DNA of 63,754 nucleotides from the NCBI GenBank assembly GCA_964476245.1, contig CAYYYW010000005.1, positions 1 through 63,754 on the forward strand, in the 5' to 3' direction. The position numbers and the translations under genes are program-made. The notes beneath the pieces were generated by a model that was not told the origin of the DNA, made no database searches, and saw only the letters and a program-made list of their open reading frames with translations. Positions 8,293-23,515 of this stretch are shown piece after piece (the first letter of the stretch is position 1; each line of letters starts with the position of its first letter). Source of the DNA: an uncultured Gammaproteobacteria bacterium (lineage in GTDB: Bacteria; Patescibacteriota; Microgenomatia; UBA1406; HO2-37-13b).

Positions 8293-9339
8293 TTATTCAA
8301 GGTATTCCTTGGCATTTTCTCCATTAACTATAAATTGTGTTCCTTCACCATTGACAAATTTAAAAGCTGTTTTACGGACAACTGTTTCTACATAACGCTC
8401 AACGCTTCTTATTCCTGGATCGTAGCCTGATAGACGGGCAATTTTTTGCCAGACGATATCGTCTACTACCAAATTTTCTGAAGATAGTCCGCTTTCTTGC
8501 AAAAGCCTAGGAAGAACATAGCTTTTGGCAATGGTGATTTTTTCTTGATCGGTGTATGAGGGCATTTGAATAACCTCCAATCGATCCATTACCGCGGTGG
8601 AAATATTAGTGGTGTTGTTGGCGGTAGTAATAAAAACAACAGAAGATAAATCAAAAGGATAATCAATATAATGATCAATAAAATTGGTGTTTTGTTCCGG
8701 ATCCAAAAGTTCAAGAAGAACTCCCATTATTGCTCCTTTGGCTTCGGGTGACACTCGGTCAAGTTCATCAAGAAGAATAACGGGATTTTTACTATTAACT
8801 CTTCTTAAAGCTTTAATGATTTGTCCTGGTTCAGCTTCGGGTTGCACTTTTGATAGTCCTCGCAAATCCAAAGCAGATGATAAACCACCAAAGGGAACCC
8901 GAACGAATTTTCTTCCAAGTGTTTCAGCCACCGATTTAGCAAAAGTAGTCTTTCCAGAACCAGCCAATCCAACAAATAATAAAATAGGCGCGTGAAAAGA
9001 TTCAAGTTTTAAGCGTTGTTTCTGAAGAATTAAGATGGATAGATATTCTAAAATTCTTTTTTTAACCGACTCTAATCCAAAATGATTTTTATCCATAATT
9101 TCTTTGGTTTTTTTTATATCAAGTAGGTCTTCTGTTTTATTTATCCAGGGAAGTGAAGTAATCCACTCAATATATTTAGAGATAATTTCCAGTTGATTTA
9201 AATTACCACCGTATTTTAAAGATAACTGTATTCGTTCAATCTGAGCTTGAACCTTCTCGAAAAGATTGGTTGGTAAATTGGCGTTTTTTACCTTCTCTTC
9301 TAATTTTTGAACTTCCAAAAAAGGCGTTTGATTATCCAT
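8293..9339 (-). CDS. Lon-like AAA+ ATPase module without LAN or S16 protease domains
   Basis: LPWINKTED..HFGLESVKKRILEYLS, Walker A GLAGSGKTT, Walker B ILLDELD, GIRSVERYV. The ORF ends where the Lon protease domain would begin. Confidence 0.7.
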   Translation of the reverse strand: MDNQTPFLEVQKLEEKVKNANLPTNLFEKVQAQIERIQLSLKYGGNLNQLEIISKYIEWITSLPWINKTEDLLDIKKTKEIMDKNHFGLESVKKRILEYLSILILQKQRLKLESFHAPILLFVGLAGSGKTTFAKSVAETLGRKFVRVPFGGLSSALDLRGLSKVQPEAEPGQIIKALRRVNSKNPVILLDELDRVSPEAKGAIMGVLLELLDPEQNTNFIDHYIDYPFDLSSVVFITTANNTTNISTAVMDRLEVIQMPSYTDQEKITIAKSYVLPRLLQESGLSSENLVVDDIVWQKIARLSGYDPGIRSVERYVETVVRKTAFKFVNGEGTQFIVNGENAKEYLE

Positions 9340-9496: not shown

Positions 9497-9817
9497 ATGA
9501 AGATTAAACAAAACCTGCCTGCCGGCAGGCAAGGCATAAAACCACTTTTCGATTATATATTGGTTAAACCTCTCCAGCAAGAAGAGGTAAGGCCATCAGG
9601 AATAGTTCTTCCCGACACAGTTAAAGAAAAACCTCAAGTTGGCCAAGTAATGGCAGTTGGCCCAGGCGCAATGAACGATGATGGCAAAATTTTACCGATA
9701 TTGATTAAGGTGGGTCAAAAAGTTTTATATAAAAAATGGGGCGGTAACGAAACTAAAGTTGGTTCTGAAGAATGGCTTTTAATTGAACAAAAAGATGTTA
9801 TGGCAATTGTAGATTAA
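9497..9817 (+). CDS. groES: Co-chaperonin GroES
   Basis: IKPLFDYILVKP..SGIVLPDT..GQVMAVGPG..; about 13-aa N-terminal extension before the canonical I+PL start. Confidence 0.9.
   Translation: MKIKQNLPAGRQGIKPLFDYILVKPLQQEEVRPSGIVLPDTVKEKPQVGQVMAVGPGAMNDDGKILPILIKVGQKVLYKKWGGNETKVGSEEWLLIEQKDVMAIVD
9516..9531. repeat. Perfect 16-nt GC-rich palindrome inside groES codons 7-12
   Basis: tgcctgccggcaggca, encoding LPAGRQ. Confidence 0.85.
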
Positions 9818-9853: not shown

Positions 9854-11500
<1,647 letters not shown>

Positions 11501-15701: not shown

Positions 15702-18700
15702 ATGGCAGGCGTTTTTGATTTTTTAAAAAAACAACCAACAGATAATAACCAAAGAGATCAAGATGTTTCTTCACAGCAAGTTGTTAGCCAAACAACAACT
15801 GAAGAACAAACCACAACCGGTTCTCAGTCTTATTCTGGTATTGGAAATCCTCCTCACGGCCAAGCCTACTCAGGAATTGGCAACCCACCCCAAGGACAGG
15901 CTTACTCTGGCATCGGCAATCCACCTCAAAGAATTGTCAGCAATCAGCAATCGGCAACCCTTCCGCCATCATCTGCGGCTCATATTTCTGGCGGACAGGT
16001 GAGTAATCAGCCAAAAACTGATCAACCGGTAACTGAAAACAAACAACAGAAAACCGATACTTTATCTTCAAATATTGACCAGAAAAAAAGAGGAGAACTT
16101 GATTTAATGACCCATTTAACCCAAAGATCAAACCGTGTTTTTATTGCTGCTCAGGCAAAAGCTAAAGAACTCCAAAGTGAATTTGTTGATAGTGAGCATA
16201 TTTTGCATGGACTATTGACGGATCCGGAGATTTATAAATTTTTTACAGAAACAAAAATTCTTCCCCAAATAATTGAGGAAGAATTGGCAAAAATTTATAA
16301 AAAGGGGGAGTCAAAGGTTCCTCCACAATTTTCACCCAGAGTTAAAAGAATTCTTGATAGATCGCTAATAGTGGCGCGAAAATTGGGTTTTGATTTTATT
16401 TCTCCCGAGCATATTCTTTTGTCGTTATATGAAGAAGGAGAAGGACTCGGGGCTCGCATTTTAACCAAATTAGGATTAAAAAAAGAGGATTTAAACAAAA
16501 AAATTATTGGTAAAAAAGAGGGGTTTGAAAAACAAGCTGCCGCCGAAAGCAAAAAAAGCACGCTTGAACAATACACGATTGATTTAACAGATAAGGCCGC
16601 GCAAGGACTGCTTGACCCAGTGGTTGAGCGTTCAGACGTTGTTGAAAGGGTAATTCACATTTTATCAAGAAGAACCAAAAATAATCCATCTTTGGTTGGT
16701 GAAGCTGGTGTGGGCAAAACTGCTGTTGCTGAAGGACTAGCTCAGAAAATTGTTAAAAAAGAAGTTCCTGAACCGTTACTAAATAAAAAAGTTCTCCAAC
16801 TTGACTTAATGAGTCTTATAGCCGGAGCCTCGCACCGTGGAGAGTTTGAAGAAAGAATGAAAAATTTAATTGAAGAAGTAAAGAATTCCCACGGGCAAAT
16901 AATTTTATTTATTGACGAAATACACAATCTTGTTGGCGCCGGTGCAGGAGGAGAAGGCGCTTTAGATGCCTCAAACTTTCTAAAACCATCCTTGGCTCGA
17001 GGAGAACTTCAAGTGATTGGTGCCACTACCTTAACCGAATACCGAAAATATATTGAGAAGGATCCCGCTCTTGAGCGAAGATTCCAACCAGTTTTAGTGC
17101 CCGAACCAACAGAAGAACAAGCCATTAAAATGCTAAAAGCCATAAGGGACAAATATGAGGCTTTTCATCGGGTAAAAATCCCCGATGAGGCGGTTGAATC
17201 AGCGGTAAAACTTTCCAAGCGTTATGTGGGAGACCGATTTTTGCCGGATAAGGCAGTTGACCTCATTGATGAGGCTGCTTCGGCCGTGCGGCTTCCATTG
17301 ATTTCTTTACCAGAAGAAATCCGTTCCGCTGAAGAAAGAATTAGCCAATTAAATCAAGAGGTTAAAGAGGCAGATAAAGCTGGCAACAGGGTAAAAATAA
17401 ATATCTTAAGGCCAAAAATTGAAAACTTAGAAATAAAATTAAAAGAAAAGCAGGAAGAATATAAGACTAAAAAGGGGCAAACCACTTCTTATGTTACTTC
17501 AGAGGTTATTAAAGATGTGGTTTCCCGCTGGACCGGTATTCCTGTTTCTAAAATCGCCGAGTCTGAAGTTGAGAAATTGGTCAAATTAGAGGAAATTATG
17601 CATCAACGACTTATTAATCAAGAAGCGGCTGTTTCTTCAGTGGCGGAAGCGGTAAGAAGAGGTCGAGCCGGTCTCAAATCAAATCAAAGACCAATTGGGA
17701 GTTTTGTTTTTCTAGGTCCTACGGGAGTTGGTAAAACAGAATTAGCCAAAACTTTAGCGGAAATTCTTTTCGGTCAAGAAGAAGCAGTTACCCGCTTTGA
17801 TATGACTGAATATATGGAAAGACATGAAGTGGCCAAACTTTTAGGAGCGCCCCCCGGCTACGTTGGTTATGAAGAAGGGGGAAAACTAACTGAGGCAGTT
17901 CGTCGTCGGCCCTATTCGGTTGTTCTTTTTGATGAAGTAGAAAAAGCTCATCCTGACATCTTTAATATTTTGCTTCAGATTTTAGACGACGGTCGGTTAA
18001 CAGATAATAAAGGACATACCATCTCTTTTAAAAACACTGTTGTTATTTGTACTTCTAATATTGGCACAGGTTTAATCCAAGACGAAATCTTAAAAACTGG
18101 AAAGGCCGAAATTGAAGAACCGCCAATATTGTCAACCTATGCCTTTTCTCCCCGTGGAAGGGAAATTTTAACTATTATGGGGAAAATCTTTGAAAGGGAG
18201 GCGGGCTCGTGGAAAGGTCAAGCGCTCCTTGATTATTTTTCCGGACAAAAAATTGAATCGGAAGACGAAAAACAAGACGAGATAGATTTTCCCATCCAGG
18301 GTTTTGATACCCATAGTATGTCAGCGAAAGGAATGGAAATTATTACCAAAAATGATAACCTTTTTTACCGTACTTCAACAACGCAAAAAATTTGGAAAAT
18401 GACTAATTTAATTGATTATTTCAAAAACGGCATAGTAATCAATGCCCTTCCTGATGCTCCCGAACAACAATTACCAACGGCAAAACTTAAAACCCAAGCT
18501 TTCTCACCGGATGAATGGGAAATTGTTACGCTAAAAGATAGATTCTGGCGAAGGAAGGAAGGTGATAATAATTGGCAAACTGGTTACTTAAAAGATTATT
18601 TTAAAGATCAAGTCATAAAAGAATCGCAAAAAGAACTCGCGTCTGAAGAAAAAGACCAAGTTTTAAACAGTGATTTAAAACCTAAATCAAACGAAACCAA

Positions 18701-19592
18701 TAAAAAATCAGCTGGGATTGTTTTTCCCATGAATTATTGGGATGTTCACACTTTCTCCCCAGACGGAAAAGAATTTATTATTTGCGGTGATAAAATTTGG
18801 ATTAAAAACCCGAATGAAAAACAGTGGTTGCCAACAAATTTAGCAGATTATTTTGGCAAGGATTTTCCCTTGGAAAAAGAGCTTGGAGAAAAGAAAAAAA
18901 TAGAAGAGGAATTAGACAAAAATCAATACCAAAGAATTAAAAACAAAGTAACAGATGAATTACGGAAGTTTTTCCGACCGGAATTGATTAATCGTTTTGA
19001 TGAGGTGATTATCTTTGAACCATTAAAATATCAACACATGCTTAAAATTGCCGATCTTCAGATGAAGGCTTTAAAAAAACTATTAGAGGAACAAAGCATA
19101 GGTCTTTTATGGACGGAAGTGGCGGTGAAGGAGATTGCTCGGGTTGGTTTTGATCCGATTTATGGAGCAAGGCCACTAAGAAGAGCTATTCAAAAATTGA
19201 TTGAAAACCCAATTTCCACTCTTATAATTCAACAAAAAATCAAAGAAGGTGATCAAATCGTGATAGACTTTGATGGAGAAAACCTTGTCTTTAATATAGA
19301 AAAGGTTGAGATGGTGCCTATTGATAACTTAACCCAAAAAGCCGTAAAAAATTATTTCTGTGAAAATTGCGGTAAGAGTTTTCAGACATTAACCGTGTCA
19401 AATAGCACTGTTGTTTGTCCTAAATGCGCTTCAAAAGATATTCAAGAAGAACTAGAACATAAAGAAGAAAAAATGGAACCCAAAGAAACAAAAAAAGACA
19501 AGGTAATTACTTCAGAAAAACCAGAAAAACCGGCGGAAACTAATCAAAATATTAACAATGATATTTCTCATCAACAATTCGCCAGTGTGTAA
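15702..19592 (+). CDS. ClpC/ClpB-family Hsp100 AAA+ unfoldase with large NBD2 insertion, N-terminal extension and C-terminal zinc ribbon
   Basis: Clp_N repeats (aa ~136-270). NBD1 has [17 protein letters not shown]. Short ClpC-like coiled coil. NBD2 has [20 protein letters not shown], then [18 protein letters not shown]. 1296 aa against about 810-870 for typical members. Confidence 0.85.
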
Positions 19593-19955: not shown

Positions 19956-20624
19956 ATGTTTCAGTTTGTAATATTGCTTTTCCAAAACATTCTTCTTTTT
20001 TTTTTATCACGGCGGACAACCAATAAACTTTTCCAATTCTTAAGAATTTTTATAAAAAAAGAAAGGATCGTTTTCTGGATAATTTCTCTTCTATATTTCC
20101 CGGGGACAATTCTTCATGAAATGAGCCATTTCCTTACGGCCACAATTCTTTTTTTAAAAGTAAAAGATATAAACATATTTCCTGAGATTAAAAAAGATTA
20201 TATTAAACTTGGATCTGTCCTCTACGAAAAAAAAGATTTTGTAAGGGGTTTTGTTATTGGGATTGCTCCGTTTTTTGCCGGAATTTTCTTTTTTTATTAC
20301 CTTTCTATTTTTAATTTGTTTCCTTCAGTCAACTTTTTTCAAAATCTGATCTTTTTATACTTAATTTTTGCCGTTTCATCAACAATGTTTTCATCAAAAC
20401 AAGATTTGGTTGATTTTGTTTTTATTATCCCTTTCATTATCTTTATGGCAGGGGTTTTTTATATTTTTCAGATTAATCTTGACTTTATATTAAAAGATCA
20501 AAAAGCATTAATTAATTTGTTAGAATTTTTAAAAGAGGTTAATTTTTACTTATTTGTTTCGTTATTGGTCAATCTAGGATCAATTATTATTATAAAATTT
20601 CTGACTATTTTAGCGAAAAAATGA
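19956..20624 (+). CDS. Polytopic membrane protein with HExxH motif (putative zincin, DUF3267-like)
   Basis: GTILHEMSHFLTA adjacent to a TM segment; 5-6 TMs. Confidence 0.5.
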   Translation: MFQFVILLFQNILLFFLSRRTTNKLFQFLRIFIKKERIVFWIISLLYFPGTILHEMSHFLTATILFLKVKDINIFPEIKKDYIKLGSVLYEKKDFVRGFVIGIAPFFAGIFFFYYLSIFNLFPSVNFFQNLIFLYLIFAVSSTMFSSKQDLVDFVFIIPFIIFMAGVFYIFQINLDFILKDQKALINLLEFLKEVNFYLFVSLLVNLGSIIIIKFLTILAKK

Positions 20625-20665: not shown

Positions 20666-20992
20666 ATGAAAACATATTTGGCTCAATGCATCAAAATTGC
20701 CGGGGAAGAAATTTGTGGCCCTATTTCTACCTCACCGGGTGAAGAAATTAATATTGCTTGGATTATAAATAAATTGATTGCTTTTGTTTTTCCCTTATCT
20801 GGTATTTTATTGTTTTTTTTCCTTGTCTGGGGTGGCTATGATTTTTTGTTGTCTGCCGGAAACCCTGAAAAAATAAAATCGGGTCAGGCAAAAATGACCA
20901 GCGCAGTTGTAGGCTTCATTCTATTAACTGCTTCTTATCTTCTTGTTCGGTTAATTTCAATGATTTTTGGATTGGGAGGCGGAATACTTTAA
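20666..20992 (+). CDS. Small two-TM protein resembling TrbC/VirB2-type T4SS pilins
   Basis: 108 aa; TM - SAGNPEKIKSGQAKM - TM layout typical of the CPR T4SS_pilin family (from memory). Confidence 0.4.
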   Translation: MKTYLAQCIKIAGEEICGPISTSPGEEINIAWIINKLIAFVFPLSGILLFFFLVWGGYDFLLSAGNPEKIKSGQAKMTSAVVGFILLTASYLLVRLISMIFGLGGGIL

Positions 20993-21121: not shown

Positions 21122-22456
21122 ATGTTTATAGGAGCTAAGAATGTGGAAACAATTATTCTTTCGGTTGGCGGAAGTCTCGTCGTTCCTAATGGAGGAATAG
21201 ACGTTGATTTTTTAAAGAAACTTAATCAATTTATAAGAGCTCAGGTAAAAAAAAGAAAGCGCTTTTGTATTGTTGTTGGTGGTGGAAAAACAACACGACA
21301 CTATCAAAACGCAGGCAAAGCTGTTATCGGGAAAATTACTAACGAGGATTTGGATTGGCTTGGCATCCACTCCACCAGAATGAATGGGCATCTTTTAAGA
21401 ACAATTTTTCAAGATATTGCCCACCCTCGGATTATTGAAAATTATGAAAAGAGACTGCGCAACTGGAAAGAATCTATAGTTATTGGCGCCGGTTGGAAAC
21501 CGGGTTGGTCTACCGACTATGACGCGGTTGTTCTAGCTCGAGATTATAATGCCTCGGTTCTCATTAATCTTTCCAATATTGATTGGGTTTACGATAAGGA
21601 TCCGGCCAAATTTAAAGATGCTCAACCTATTAAAAAAACCACCTGGGATTATTTTGAAACTCTTGTTAAGAATGAATGGGTGCCGGGAATTAATGCCCCT
21701 TTTGATCCAATCGCCACGCAATTGGCAAAAAAATTAGGAATAACGGTAATTGTCACCAACGGAAAAAACTTTAAAAATTTAGAAAATATTCTTGAAGGGG
21801 AAGGTTTTAAAGGCACGGTTATTACCCCTTTTAAAATTGATGCCTCGTTTTATGACCGGGATTATTTTGAGGGTAAAAAAGGAGAATATCGGTTGTCTTA
21901 CACAAAGTCTTTCATGGGTAATTTAATTCAAAACATAGTTAATTTTTATCGGGCCTTATGCATAAAAACTGTTATCAATCCAAAAAATTGTCTTGACGTT
22001 GGATGCGGCACTGGAAAATTAGTTCATTATTTAAGAATGTTGGGAATAGAGGCCTATGGCATAGAAATATCACCATATGCTTTGTCAGAGGCAAAAAAGG
22101 AAGTAAAACCATATCTTAAATATGGCGATATTACGAAAATTCCCTACCCTGACAACAATTTTGACCTAGTTTCAACTTCTGATGTTTTAGAGCATATTGA
22201 GAGAGCAAAATTAAAAAAAGCAGTTGAGGAGACTGTCAGAGTCTCAAGAAAATGGACTCTTCATAAAATTTATACATTGGAAAATTCTTGGATTACTTTT
22301 TCTCACGGAAAAGATTTTTCTCATCTTTCCGTGTTGAGCAGGAGTTTTTGGTTAAATATGTTTAGAACGATGGAGAACATTTCCGTGATAAGGAAATTCT
22401 TCTTTAAATTACCTTCATTTTTTGAAACGAAATTTTTGTTGAAAAAGAAACAGTAA
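21122..22456 (+). CDS. Fusion of archaeal-type UMP kinase and class I SAM-dependent methyltransferase
   Basis: aa 1-~230 show the amino-acid-kinase fold (SVGGSLV, VVGGGKTTR, GWKPGWSTD). aa ~285-390 show LDVGCGTGK..DLVSTSDVLEHI. GTG 21143 behind AGGAG is an alternative start. Confidence 0.7.
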   Translation: MFIGAKNVETIILSVGGSLVVPNGGIDVDFLKKLNQFIRAQVKKRKRFCIVVGGGKTTRHYQNAGKAVIGKITNEDLDWLGIHSTRMNGHLLRTIFQDIAHPRIIENYEKRLRNWKESIVIGAGWKPGWSTDYDAVVLARDYNASVLINLSNIDWVYDKDPAKFKDAQPIKKTTWDYFETLVKNEWVPGINAPFDPIATQLAKKLGITVIVTNGKNFKNLENILEGEGFKGTVITPFKIDASFYDRDYFEGKKGEYRLSYTKSFMGNLIQNIVNFYRALCIKTVINPKNCLDVGCGTGKLVHYLRMLGIEAYGIEISPYALSEAKKEVKPYLKYGDITKIPYPDNNFDLVSTSDVLEHIERAKLKKAVEETVRVSRKWTLHKIYTLENSWITFSHGKDFSHLSVLSRSFWLNMFRTMENISVIRKFFFKLPSFFETKFLLKKKQ

Positions 22457-22459
22457 TCT

Positions 22460-23515
22460 ATGATTCTTAAAAAAATTACTATTACGAACTTCCGTAATTT
22501 TGATAATTTTGTTTTTTGTTTTAGTCCTTCTTTAACAATTATTATCGGAAAAAACTCTATTGGCAAAACCAATCTTCTTGAGGCAGTTTATTTTTCACTT
22601 AAGAGTCGTGGGTTTCGTGAACAAAAAGAGGAAGAATTAATAAATTACGATAAAATAAAAGCGGATGTTCAAATAGAGTTGGCGGAGCAAAAAGAAGAAA
22701 CAAAATTGAAAATAAACATTGAAAAGAATGATCCACCGGCTAGCGGGGTAGTCAAAAATTGCTTTGTTAATAAAATCAGGAAAAAAAGCTATCAGTATCT
22801 TTTGGAGAGTTTACCTGTGGTAATTTTTTCTCCTAATTTTGTCTATGTTATCGAGGGTGAACCGGGAGAAAGAAGGAGCTATTTTGATATTATTATTGCC
22901 ATTTTTGACATTGAGTACAAAAAAAGACTAGTTAATTACGAAAGTGCCTTGAGAAAAAGAAATAAAATATTGGAATTAGAAAAAAATATTGAAAAACTGA
23001 AAGAAGATTTGGAATTCTGGGATGATTATTTAATTGAGCAGGCAAACTACATAGCGATGAAAAGGCAAGAATTAATAGATTTTTTTAACAAACATAGACA
23101 AGTTGATAGTAAGAACTTCAGCATTGATTATGTAAAAAACGAGTTCTCCCGGGAGACTTTGGATAAAACATTTAAAAAACAATTAATTCTTAAAAAAACC
23201 CTAATTGGTCCCCAAAGAGACGACTTTATAATAAATATTAAGACTCCGAGCGGTTTTAAAAATGTTCACAAGTTCGGTTCAAGAAGCGAGCAGCGACTAG
23301 CTCTTTTTTGGTTGGTTTTAAATGAAATTAATCTTTATCAGGAAATACTAAAAAAACGTCCGCTTGTTCTTTTAGATGACGTTTTTTCCGAACTTGACAT
23401 AACCAATAAAGAACTTGTTTTAAAACTGATTAAAAAATATCAAACAGTAATTACTACAACGGAAGAAAATATTTTAAGCCTTGTTGATATGCCGCATACG
23501 ATAATTAATCTGTAA
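22460..23515 (+). CDS. recF: DNA replication and repair protein RecF
   Basis: Walker A GKNSIGKTN, GPQRDDF, signature GSRSEQRLA, Walker B LLDDVFSELD. Confidence 0.85.
   Translation: MILKKITITNFRNFDNFVFCFSPSLTIIIGKNSIGKTNLLEAVYFSLKSRGFREQKEEELINYDKIKADVQIELAEQKEETKLKINIEKNDPPASGVVKNCFVNKIRKKSYQYLLESLPVVIFSPNFVYVIEGEPGERRSYFDIIIAIFDIEYKKRLVNYESALRKRNKILELEKNIEKLKEDLEFWDDYLIEQANYIAMKRQELIDFFNKHRQVDSKNFSIDYVKNEFSRETLDKTFKKQLILKKTLIGPQRDDFIINIKTPSGFKNVHKFGSRSEQRLALFWLVLNEINLYQEILKKRPLVLLDDVFSELDITNKELVLKLIKKYQTVITTTEENILSLVDMPHTIINL

Follow-up and report, generated by a model that had tools for sequence, protein, structure and literature searches.

A hemopexin-like four-bladed propeller predicted within the second AAA+ domain of an Hsp100 protein from Candidatus Roizmanbacteria

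Introduction

Hsp100 proteins are commonly classed by what the underside of their second ring carries: a ClpP-binding loop in ClpA, ClpC, ClpE and ClpX, and nothing in ClpB, Hsp104, ClpG and ClpL. Here we describe a gene (positions 15702..19592, plus strand; an open reading frame (ORF) of 1296 codons) whose product holds a large conserved domain at this place, predicted to be a hemopexin-like propeller of four blades. The gene lies in a 63,754-nucleotide stretch of contig CAYYYW010000005.1 (assembly GCA_964476245.1), which is referred to as the window. Its product would be the resident Hsp100 unfoldase or disaggregase of Candidatus Roizmanbacteria (Microgenomates, Patescibacteria/candidate phyla radiation (CPR)), a two-ring protein with a middle domain (M-domain) of ClpC length.

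In ClpA and ClpC, the site between sensor-1 and the arginine (Arg)-finger helix of the second nucleotide-binding domain (NBD2) carries the (V/I)GF loop that contacts ClpP (PMC5540906). ClpC as known from the ClpC-MecA-ClpP machines of B. subtilis and S. aureus shares with the protein described here the order Clp_N, NBD1, short M-domain, NBD2 and D2-small, and the two M-domains align without a gap. In contrast to ClpC, however, our protein has no VGF loop but a 282-residue propeller at that site, as well as an additional C-terminal zinc ribbon, a disordered N-terminal tail and a histidine for the tyrosine of the NBD1 pore loop. ClpB and Hsp104 resemble it in the absence of the ClpP tripeptide, in the SN-x-G-x-x-LIQ start of the segment following sensor-1 and in the fold of NBD2. 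The M-domain of ClpB, on the other hand, comprises about 120-140 residues compared to about 65 here, and the site in question spans only about 27-35 residues in ClpB, with no folded domain. Weibezahn et al. are reported to have exchanged, in 2004, a segment of ClpB so that ClpB binds ClpP, and the insertion described below lies in that segment. In the engineered BAP variant, this ClpB segment faces ClpP once it has been given the loop. The BAP-ClpP entries 4d2q and 4d2x were among the PDB matches of our protein.

The stand-alone disaggregases ClpG/ClpK and ClpL likewise combine a short M-domain with the absence of a ClpP loop, and presumably share with our protein a mode of action that is independent of ClpP, and perhaps of DnaK. 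Alignments to the NCBIfam models of ClpK and ClpG were continuous over aa 127-803, with scores (742-750) far below the cut-off of 1900. In place of the extra N1 domain of ClpG/ClpK, a low-complexity tail precedes a single Clp_N, and none of the ClpG/ClpK and ClpL disaggregases is known to carry an insert in NBD2. As to the insert itself, hemopexin, the C-terminal domains of matrix metalloproteinases (MMPs), vitronectin and the legume albumins PA2 and CP4 have the same predicted fold, with four blades that each consist of four strands and a short helix. Their identity to the insert is about 10%, and they are terminal extracellular modules, whereas the insert is cytosolic and nested in an AAA+ domain. 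Glycans, heme and polyamines are among the ligands of hemopexin-fold proteins. The I-domain of HslU and the M-domain of ClpB are precedents for a folded accessory domain that is spliced into an AAA+ module and projects from the ring. The former is located between Walker A and Walker B and the latter in the NBD1 small subdomain; both are helical and sit on another face of the ring than the insert.

Results and Discussion

A 282-residue insert of four repeats between sensor-1 and the Arg-finger helix

Pfam analysis of the 1296-aa product identified Clp_N, AAA and AAA_lid_9 (NBD1), AAA_2 (NBD2, aa 663-796) and ClpB_D2-small. With two AAA+ modules and D2-small present, both by Pfam and by alignment to ClpC, the protein is a member of the class-I Hsp100/Clp proteins (ClpA/B/C superfamily). 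In a phmmer search, the closest PDB chains were B. subtilis and S. aureus ClpC (E ~1e-238). Residues 194-791 aligned with residues 63-664 of B. subtilis ClpC without a large gap and residues 1074-1196 with residues 680-803, while about 282 residues (aa 792-1073) stand in place of the 15 ClpC residues 665-679. These 15 residues, which we take to be LKRNKYVGFNVQDET, would include the VGF ClpP loop. An initial annotation of the window had proposed that a four-repeat domain of about 270 residues separates the NBD2 sensor-1 (TSN) from the Arg-finger helix, and the comparison with ClpC bears this out for a domain of about 270-280 residues. The positions given there (18099-18881, aa 800-1060) fall inside the insert; its true extent is approximately aa 792-1073 (18075..18920, plus strand). 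It begins with an N-terminal linker (GK-x-EIEEP), continues with the hemopexin-like propeller of four blades and includes the first part of the return helix.

Based on the AlphaFold2 (AF2) models described below and on blade profiles, the four predicted blades were assigned, all on the plus strand, to aa 806-850 (blade 1, 18117..18251), aa 862-911 (blade 2, 18285..18434), aa 923-970 (blade 3, 18468..18611) and aa 1006-1054 (blade 4, 18717..18863). Blades 2 and 3 are joined by a 15-residue linker (aa 912-926, 18435..18479) and blades 3 and 4 by a low-complexity linker rich in K, E and S (18612..18716), which is variable, predicted to be disordered and missing from most orthologues. The family alignment gave the consensus (F/L)P-x5-(T/D)-H-x-FSP-x-G-x-E ... 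W ... W ... L-x-DYF for units of about 48 residues, each of which starts some ten residues earlier than first annotated. When a profile was made for each blade from 60 species and the four were compared with hhalign, they matched one another with probabilities of 96-98% and E-values of 1e-9 to 1e-15, and at this profile level the homology between blades is far beyond chance. Tandem Repeats Finder (TRF) detected no DNA-level repeat among the blades, which argues for an old blade duplication.

The insert is a genuine part of the gene. Six contigs that were assembled independently and stem from different sequencing runs (including JGI 3300028168 and Logan SRR8437217 and SRR8437218) encode an identical 1296-aa protein, and the chimeric assembly considered in the initial annotation is thereby refuted. 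Using a trimmed insert alignment to scan one genome per species, we found the insert in at least 100 GTDB species representatives, most of which are Candidatus Roizmanbacteria or otherwise labelled Microgenomates or Patescibacteria. Many third party annotation (TPA) records of insert-bearing species carry the label "uncultured Gammaproteobacteria", which we take to be a placeholder. In 66 of the loci retrieved, a single open frame spans the insert and the AAA+ motifs on either side of it, with a distance of 257-563 residues between the anchors (median 313). The base composition of the insert is similar to that of the rest of the gene (GC content 0.359 vs 0.385; 0.316 vs 0.29 at third codon positions) and gives no sign of foreign origin by recent transfer. 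No intein motifs are present in the insert.

Database entries of the insert family (P0002-P0012) are mostly fragments, some of which start inside blade 1, and the DNA under such entries is often one continuous ORF (e.g. L018, L055). Similarly, the insert-less orthologues in L081 and L082 are each called as two adjacent genes. A propeller-bearing Hsp100 is thus easily missed in protein databases.

The insert is predicted to be a divergent hemopexin-like propeller

Searching the insert against Pfam yielded nothing relevant at E-values up to 10, including PF00045 and PD40, and its profile produced only chance matches, and no hemopexin chain, against PDB sequences. We therefore relied on structure prediction and on intermediate sequences. 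The AF2 model of the insert, calculated from an alignment with 12 database fragments, had a mean predicted local distance difference test score (pLDDT) of 79.8 and a predicted template modelling score (pTM) of 0.77. It consists of four units with four strands and a short helix each, and low confidence is limited to two linkers, the N-terminal one and the variable one that joins blades 3 and 4. A larger model of NBD2, insert, D2-small and zinc ribbon (aa 600-1260), based on a 68-row alignment, reached a pLDDT of 87 and a pTM of 0.80, with values of about 95 for the blades; its AAA+ part superimposes on NBD2 of T. thermophilus ClpB with template modelling (TM) scores of 0.87-0.93. A prediction of disorder only, raised at the outset as a possible outcome, is at odds with both models (pTM 0.77-0.80) and with the conservation of the repeats over 60 species.

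In a Foldseek search of the insert model against the PDB, the best matches were four-bladed hemopexin folds (E ~1e-7, TM 0.65-0.73 on the target), including proMMP-1, cowpea CP4, serum hemopexin, vitronectin, the hemopexin domains of MMP-2, MMP-9, MMP-13 and MMP-14, and legume albumins. Six- and seven-bladed propellers such as Pizza, YCF48 and PknD/NHL fitted the model worse (TM 0.27-0.40). The insert is thus predicted to be a closed beta-propeller of four blades. The initial annotation had recognised the repeats as propeller blades, and the models agree; it had likened them to PD40/TolB blades, a type that we rejected in view of the number of blades, the missing PD40 match and the hemopexin folds at the top of the Foldseek results.

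Additional information on the origin of the domain came from its distant relatives. Among 1.84 billion representative proteins, the insert profile matched just 45 at E <=1e-3 (HMMER). The members that are not Clp proteins are DUF2961, GH39/GH42-like and Peptidase_C39_2 enzymes with 3-12 copies of the blade, which are probably secreted because they have N-terminal hydrophobic segments; those with a named source are from Candidatus Beckwithbacteria and Candidatus Dojkabacteria. One weak match (P0172, E 5.4e-4) is a protein of the eukaryote Diplonema papillatum. The consensus of the blade enzymes (vPt-nIDsAYfD--GgYTVIKGdrYWYR-----WytnTL-sAYy) resembles the hemopexin repeat, and one of these enzymes (P0165) scores above the gathering threshold of PF00045 (24.0 vs 21.3). 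When a profile of seven blade-enzyme domains was searched against the PDB, the top five matches were exclusively hemopexin-domain proteins (hemopexin, MMP-14, gelatinase A), with weak E-values of 0.009-0.5. The insert alignment in turn matched the blade-enzyme profile with all four blades in register (hhalign, probability 98.7%, E 1.7e-16). From the modelled fold and from homology traced through these intermediates, we conclude that the insert is a divergent hemopexin-like four-bladed propeller from the domain pool of secreted enzymes of Patescibacteria.

The parent Hsp100 probably already lacked a ClpP loop

The initial annotation had placed the insert where the ClpP-docking loop is found in other Hsp100 proteins, and this is right as far as position goes, as outlined above. 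The relatives argue against the displacement of a working loop. With an insert-free query of NBD2, D2-small and zinc ribbon, we obtained propeller-less proteins as best matches (62-67% identity). At the insertion site, P0013-P0020, several of which are labelled Roizmanbacteria, carry loops of 32-62 residues rich in K, S and E; relatives from Woesebacteria and Gottesmanbacteria have low-complexity loops of about 80-108 residues, and other Patescibacteria have ClpB-like segments of 38-43 residues. With lengths of 24-108 residues across the relatives, the insertion site is, as judged from these sequences, an indel hot spot in Microgenomates at which the propeller was gained in one clade.

A convincing (L/I/V/M)-G-(F/L) tripeptide was found at this site in 0 of the 46 nearest relatives and in none of the insert-less positional orthologues, and in these proteins the segment opens in a ClpB-like manner (TSNIG-x-LIQ-E; SN-x-G-x-x-LIQ in all 46 relatives). 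The clp gene of L081 is such an insert-less positional orthologue because it is followed by the same downstream gene order as in the window, namely a gene for a type IV secretion system (T4SS)-pilin-like protein, pyrH and recF. Since the insert-less orthologues and relatives have no ClpP loop, the lineage was already without one before the propeller arrived, and no working loop was displaced. The parent of the propeller-bearing Hsp100 was thus probably already ClpP-independent. Within the insert, no alignment column has (LIVM)G(FL) in more than four of the 60 sequences. In addition, tblastn with an E. coli ClpP query detected no clpP in the 63.7-kb window, as had been noted initially, or in 80 orthologous loci (1.16 Mb).

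The ClpC-like character for which the protein was first named is confined to its short, half-length M-domain. It does not have the (V/I/L)-G-(F/L) docking loop after the NBD2 sensor-1, where it shows the ClpB-like start SN-x-G-x-x-LIQ. Neither is it a ClpB: the long four-helix M-domain is lacking, and its score against the ClpB model TIGR03346 (949, cut-off 1232), to which it aligned in three separate stretches, is below the cut-off. The NCBIfam scores were all high, and those against the other equivalog models, ClpK (750 vs 1900), ClpG (742 vs 1900) and ClpA (720 vs 993), also fell short of the cut-offs.

The propeller is conserved and outlasts the motor in one lineage

Conservation of the blades is high across 60 species, whereas the linker that follows blade 1 and the one that joins blades 3 and 4 are of low complexity and vary in length. 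The N-terminal linker GK-x-EIEEP is also conserved, and the linker between blades 2 and 3 is nearly invariant (>=95% conservation). The start of the latter (aa 911-918) has a pLDDT below 50 in the larger AF2 model. Invariant, exposed and poorly ordered in the model, such a linker looks typical of a partner-binding motif.

Seven species (L036, L063, L070, L072, L074, L078, L080) have inserts of about 530-560 residues, in which the blades follow the order b1a-[b1a b1b b2 linker b3 b4]-b1b b2 linker b3 b4. The loop between strands 3 and 4 of blade 1 thus houses a second, complete propeller; in other orthologues this loop is also a hot spot for low-complexity insertions. This provides a clear natural case of domain nesting on three levels, with a propeller in a propeller in an AAA+ domain.

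Further insight came from P0133, a positional orthologue of 834 residues with the same synteny that is present on two contigs (L083:8001-10505 and L084:4992-7496). In this protein NBD1 and the M-domain are missing. From NBD2, the pore loop, the Walker B glutamate (FSDIE), sensor-2 (GAHPLKH) and the Arg finger (GPELYYAFDE) have disappeared, and to judge from these losses ATP-driven threading has almost certainly ceased. It retains Clp_N, the complete set of four blades and the zinc ribbon. P0144 is a second degenerate orthologue. As P0133 keeps the propeller despite the decay of the motor, the propeller is under selection even in the almost certain absence of ATP-driven threading. Such a motor-dead orthologue represents a natural separation-of-function variant.

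A proposed role at the channel exit and its alternatives

As an Hsp100 without a ClpP-binding tripeptide, the protein most likely works independently of ClpP, like ClpB, ClpG and ClpL. The four-bladed hemopexin-like propeller was spliced in one clade into a part of NBD2, between sensor-1 and the Arg-finger helix, that faces away from ring 1, and the six propellers of a hexamer would consequently surround the channel exit like a crown. In our proposal, the propeller serves as a binding module and adds a second, motor-independent interaction surface, with which it would dock a partner other than ClpP, or another ring, with the invariant exposed loop between blades 2 and 3 as a candidate contact element. 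We put the probability of this reading as a whole at roughly 0.5. The identity of its parts is very nearly secure in our view, and we are much less confident of the docking role. In its most specific form, in which the six propellers make up a docking ring where the channel of this ClpP-less Hsp100 ends and the invariant loop couples the motor to an unrecognised partner (for instance a second ring, a membrane machine or a peptidase other than ClpP), the proposal is tentative, and we would sooner doubt it than rely on it.

Several points weigh against docking at the exit. The crown is placed there by positional homology with other Hsp100 proteins. Domains related to the propeller are found outside the cell and probably have glycans or cell-wall material as ligands, and protein docking in the cytosol would be an extrapolation from them. 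Moreover, all orthologues have a histidine for the tyrosine of the NBD1 pore loop, so that the mechanics of threading may differ from those of textbook ClpB and ClpC. Finally, we found no clear functional link to clp among the neighbouring genes (pilin-like, pyrH, recF, M50B-like), and no partner among them.

The propeller might instead be a receptor for substrates or adaptors that feeds clients to the motor, in the manner of the Clp N-domain or the HslU I-domain. Hemopexin domains of metalloproteinases are known to recognise substrates, the related blades are found on secreted hydrolases, where a role in substrate binding is likely, and the linkers flanking the propeller are partly flexible in the AF2 models. 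Substrates enter class-I Hsp100s at the opposite face from the insertion point, however, a Clp_N domain is already present, and the motor-dead orthologue keeps the propeller although it is unable to thread, and we consider this function unlikely. A role in higher-order assembly, either by tail-to-tail stacking of hexamers or in a resting state comparable to the storage assemblies of ClpC and ClpL, would agree with the dimerisation of the hemopexin domains of MMP-9 and MMP-14 (PDB entry 1itv is titled as a dimeric form) and with the resting-state decamers and tetradecamers of ClpC (9qqr, 9qcl); the invariant exposed loop could then be a self-contact. Known resting states of Hsp100 proteins use M-domains and not NBD2, and the nested second propeller of some lineages would have to fit the same interface, which leaves this function rather improbable.

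Far less credible is an elaborated ClpP loop, in which the insert would still dock ClpP via the x-G-F/Y motif at the start of blade 2 (FPIQGFDTH). Glycine is found at this position in 52/60 species and phenylalanine or tyrosine in 60/60, and a few species even have LGF (P0002). The residue before the glycine is mostly H, Q, F, K or Y, however, and not L, I or V, and the motif occupies the place that YW has in blade 4 and KL has in blade 3, hence it is structural. P0001 does not have the motif, the insert-less orthologues have no tripeptide, and clpP is missing from the window and the 1.16 Mb of related loci as assessed by tblastn. The xGF of blade 2 is not a ClpP tripeptide, and a vestigial ClpP loop is ruled out by the column statistics and the blade register. 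We give equally little credence to the idea that the insert arose by chimeric assembly, that it is a mobile element or resembles an intein, or that it is a functionless neutral passenger. The loops of 24-108 residues at this indel hot spot of Microgenomates and the fragmentary state of many database entries of the family would fit a passenger or an artefact. Against this stand the six independent contigs, the occurrence in at least 100 species and in frame with both anchors in 66 loci, the native base composition, the missing DNA-level repeats among the blades, and the strong conservation, including that of the invariant 15-residue loop, in an insert that is kept when the motor decays.

In full-text literature searches, we found no description of an Hsp100 or any other AAA+ protein with a hemopexin-like or other propeller insert, in agreement with the initial annotation, and searches for Clp proteins of Roizmanbacteria and for ClpP or ClpX of CPR/Patescibacteria returned nothing relevant. 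The motor is of a known kind; the architecture and the exit-face platform that it would imply are new. The presence of a folded, conserved propeller at this spot throughout a bacterial lineage points to a third option beside a ClpP loop and a bare underside, namely a built-in platform at the exit face, and the architecture suggests a partner or a mode of assembly that has so far gone unrecognised. If the docking ring proves true, it would represent a new way to couple a Clp-family translocase to downstream machinery, and the docking function would have outlived the motor in some lineages. The propeller also illustrates the recruitment of an extracellular-type module into a cytosolic machine, in reduced CPR genomes in which proteostasis is almost unstudied. 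In practical terms, there is a testable target, the invariant loop, and a defined construct that can be used in structural work.

Other features of the protein

The N-terminal tail, which is predicted to be disordered, contains a tandem repeat of 36 bp in 2.9 copies (15825..15929, plus strand; TRF) that encodes (Q)AYSGIGNPP three times. The YSGIGxP motif occurs in 13/45 orthologues and also in the distant orthologues P0137 and P0154, and may be a short linear motif. The idea that YSGIGNPP is a co-evolving ligand of the propeller was dropped, as only these 13 of 45 orthologues have it. Clp_N (aa 139-280, 16116..16541, plus strand; PF02861) aligns with the N-domain of ClpC. NBD1 follows at aa ~287-535 (16560..17306, plus strand) with intact Walker A (GEAGVGKT) and Walker B (ILFIDEIH) motifs. 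Its pore loop reads SHR (aa 377-379, window positions 16830-16838) in 48/48 orthologues, with His378 replacing the tyrosine of the canonical KYR. Other relatives from Patescibacteria have AHR or KHR at this position.

The ClpC-type middle domain of about 65 residues (17307..17501, plus strand) aligns with that of B. subtilis ClpC without a gap, whereas alignments to ClpB split into three stretches. The N-terminal part of NBD2 up to sensor-1 (aa 620-791, 17559..18074, plus strand) contains Walker A (GPTGVGKT) and the pore loop GAPPGYVG, the GYVG of which is intact in 64 orthologues. Beyond the insert, a long return helix leads into the Arg-finger motif of the C-terminal part of NBD2 (18864..19016, plus strand; ClpC alignment and AF2 model), followed by D2-small (aa 1108-1188, 19023..19265, plus strand; PF10431) with the sensor-2 motif GARPLRR. 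According to the ClpC alignment, both pairs of Walker A and B motifs, sensor-1, the Arg finger, sensor-2 and the NBD2 pore loop are intact. The protein ends with a zinc ribbon (CENC-x17-CPKC, aa 1220-1243, 19359..19430, plus strand), to which Zn_ribbon_8 matched weakly (aa 1218-1247). We know of no C-terminal zinc ribbon in other Hsp100s. The CxxC...CxxC ribbon is conserved in 55/65 orthologues and, because the insert-less orthologues carry it as well, it is older than the propeller.

Neighbouring genes

Downstream of the clp gene, a multi-pass membrane protein of 222 residues with an HEMSH motif (19956-20624, plus strand) matched Peptidase_M50B weakly (16.9 bits, cut-off 26). A corresponding gene is found between clp and the pilin-like gene in 38/64 orthologous loci and is absent beside the insert-less orthologue, and we consider this HExxH membrane protein unreliable as a candidate partner. 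The next gene encodes the T4SS-pilin-like membrane protein of 108 residues (20666-20992, plus strand). It is followed by pyrH (21122-22456, plus strand), here a fusion of a uridine monophosphate (UMP)-kinase-like AA_kinase domain with an S-adenosylmethionine (SAM) methyltransferase, and by recF (22460-23515). Most orthologous loci keep this order of the pilin-like gene, pyrH and recF.

Upstream, groES (9497-9817) and groEL (9869-11500) are encoded on the plus strand next to an AAA+ protein of 347 residues (8293-9339, minus strand) that has a Lon lid and no protease domain. The clp gene thus lies within a small proteostasis neighbourhood comprising the Lon-lid AAA+ protein, groES and groEL, and the same arrangement was observed in L083 and L084.

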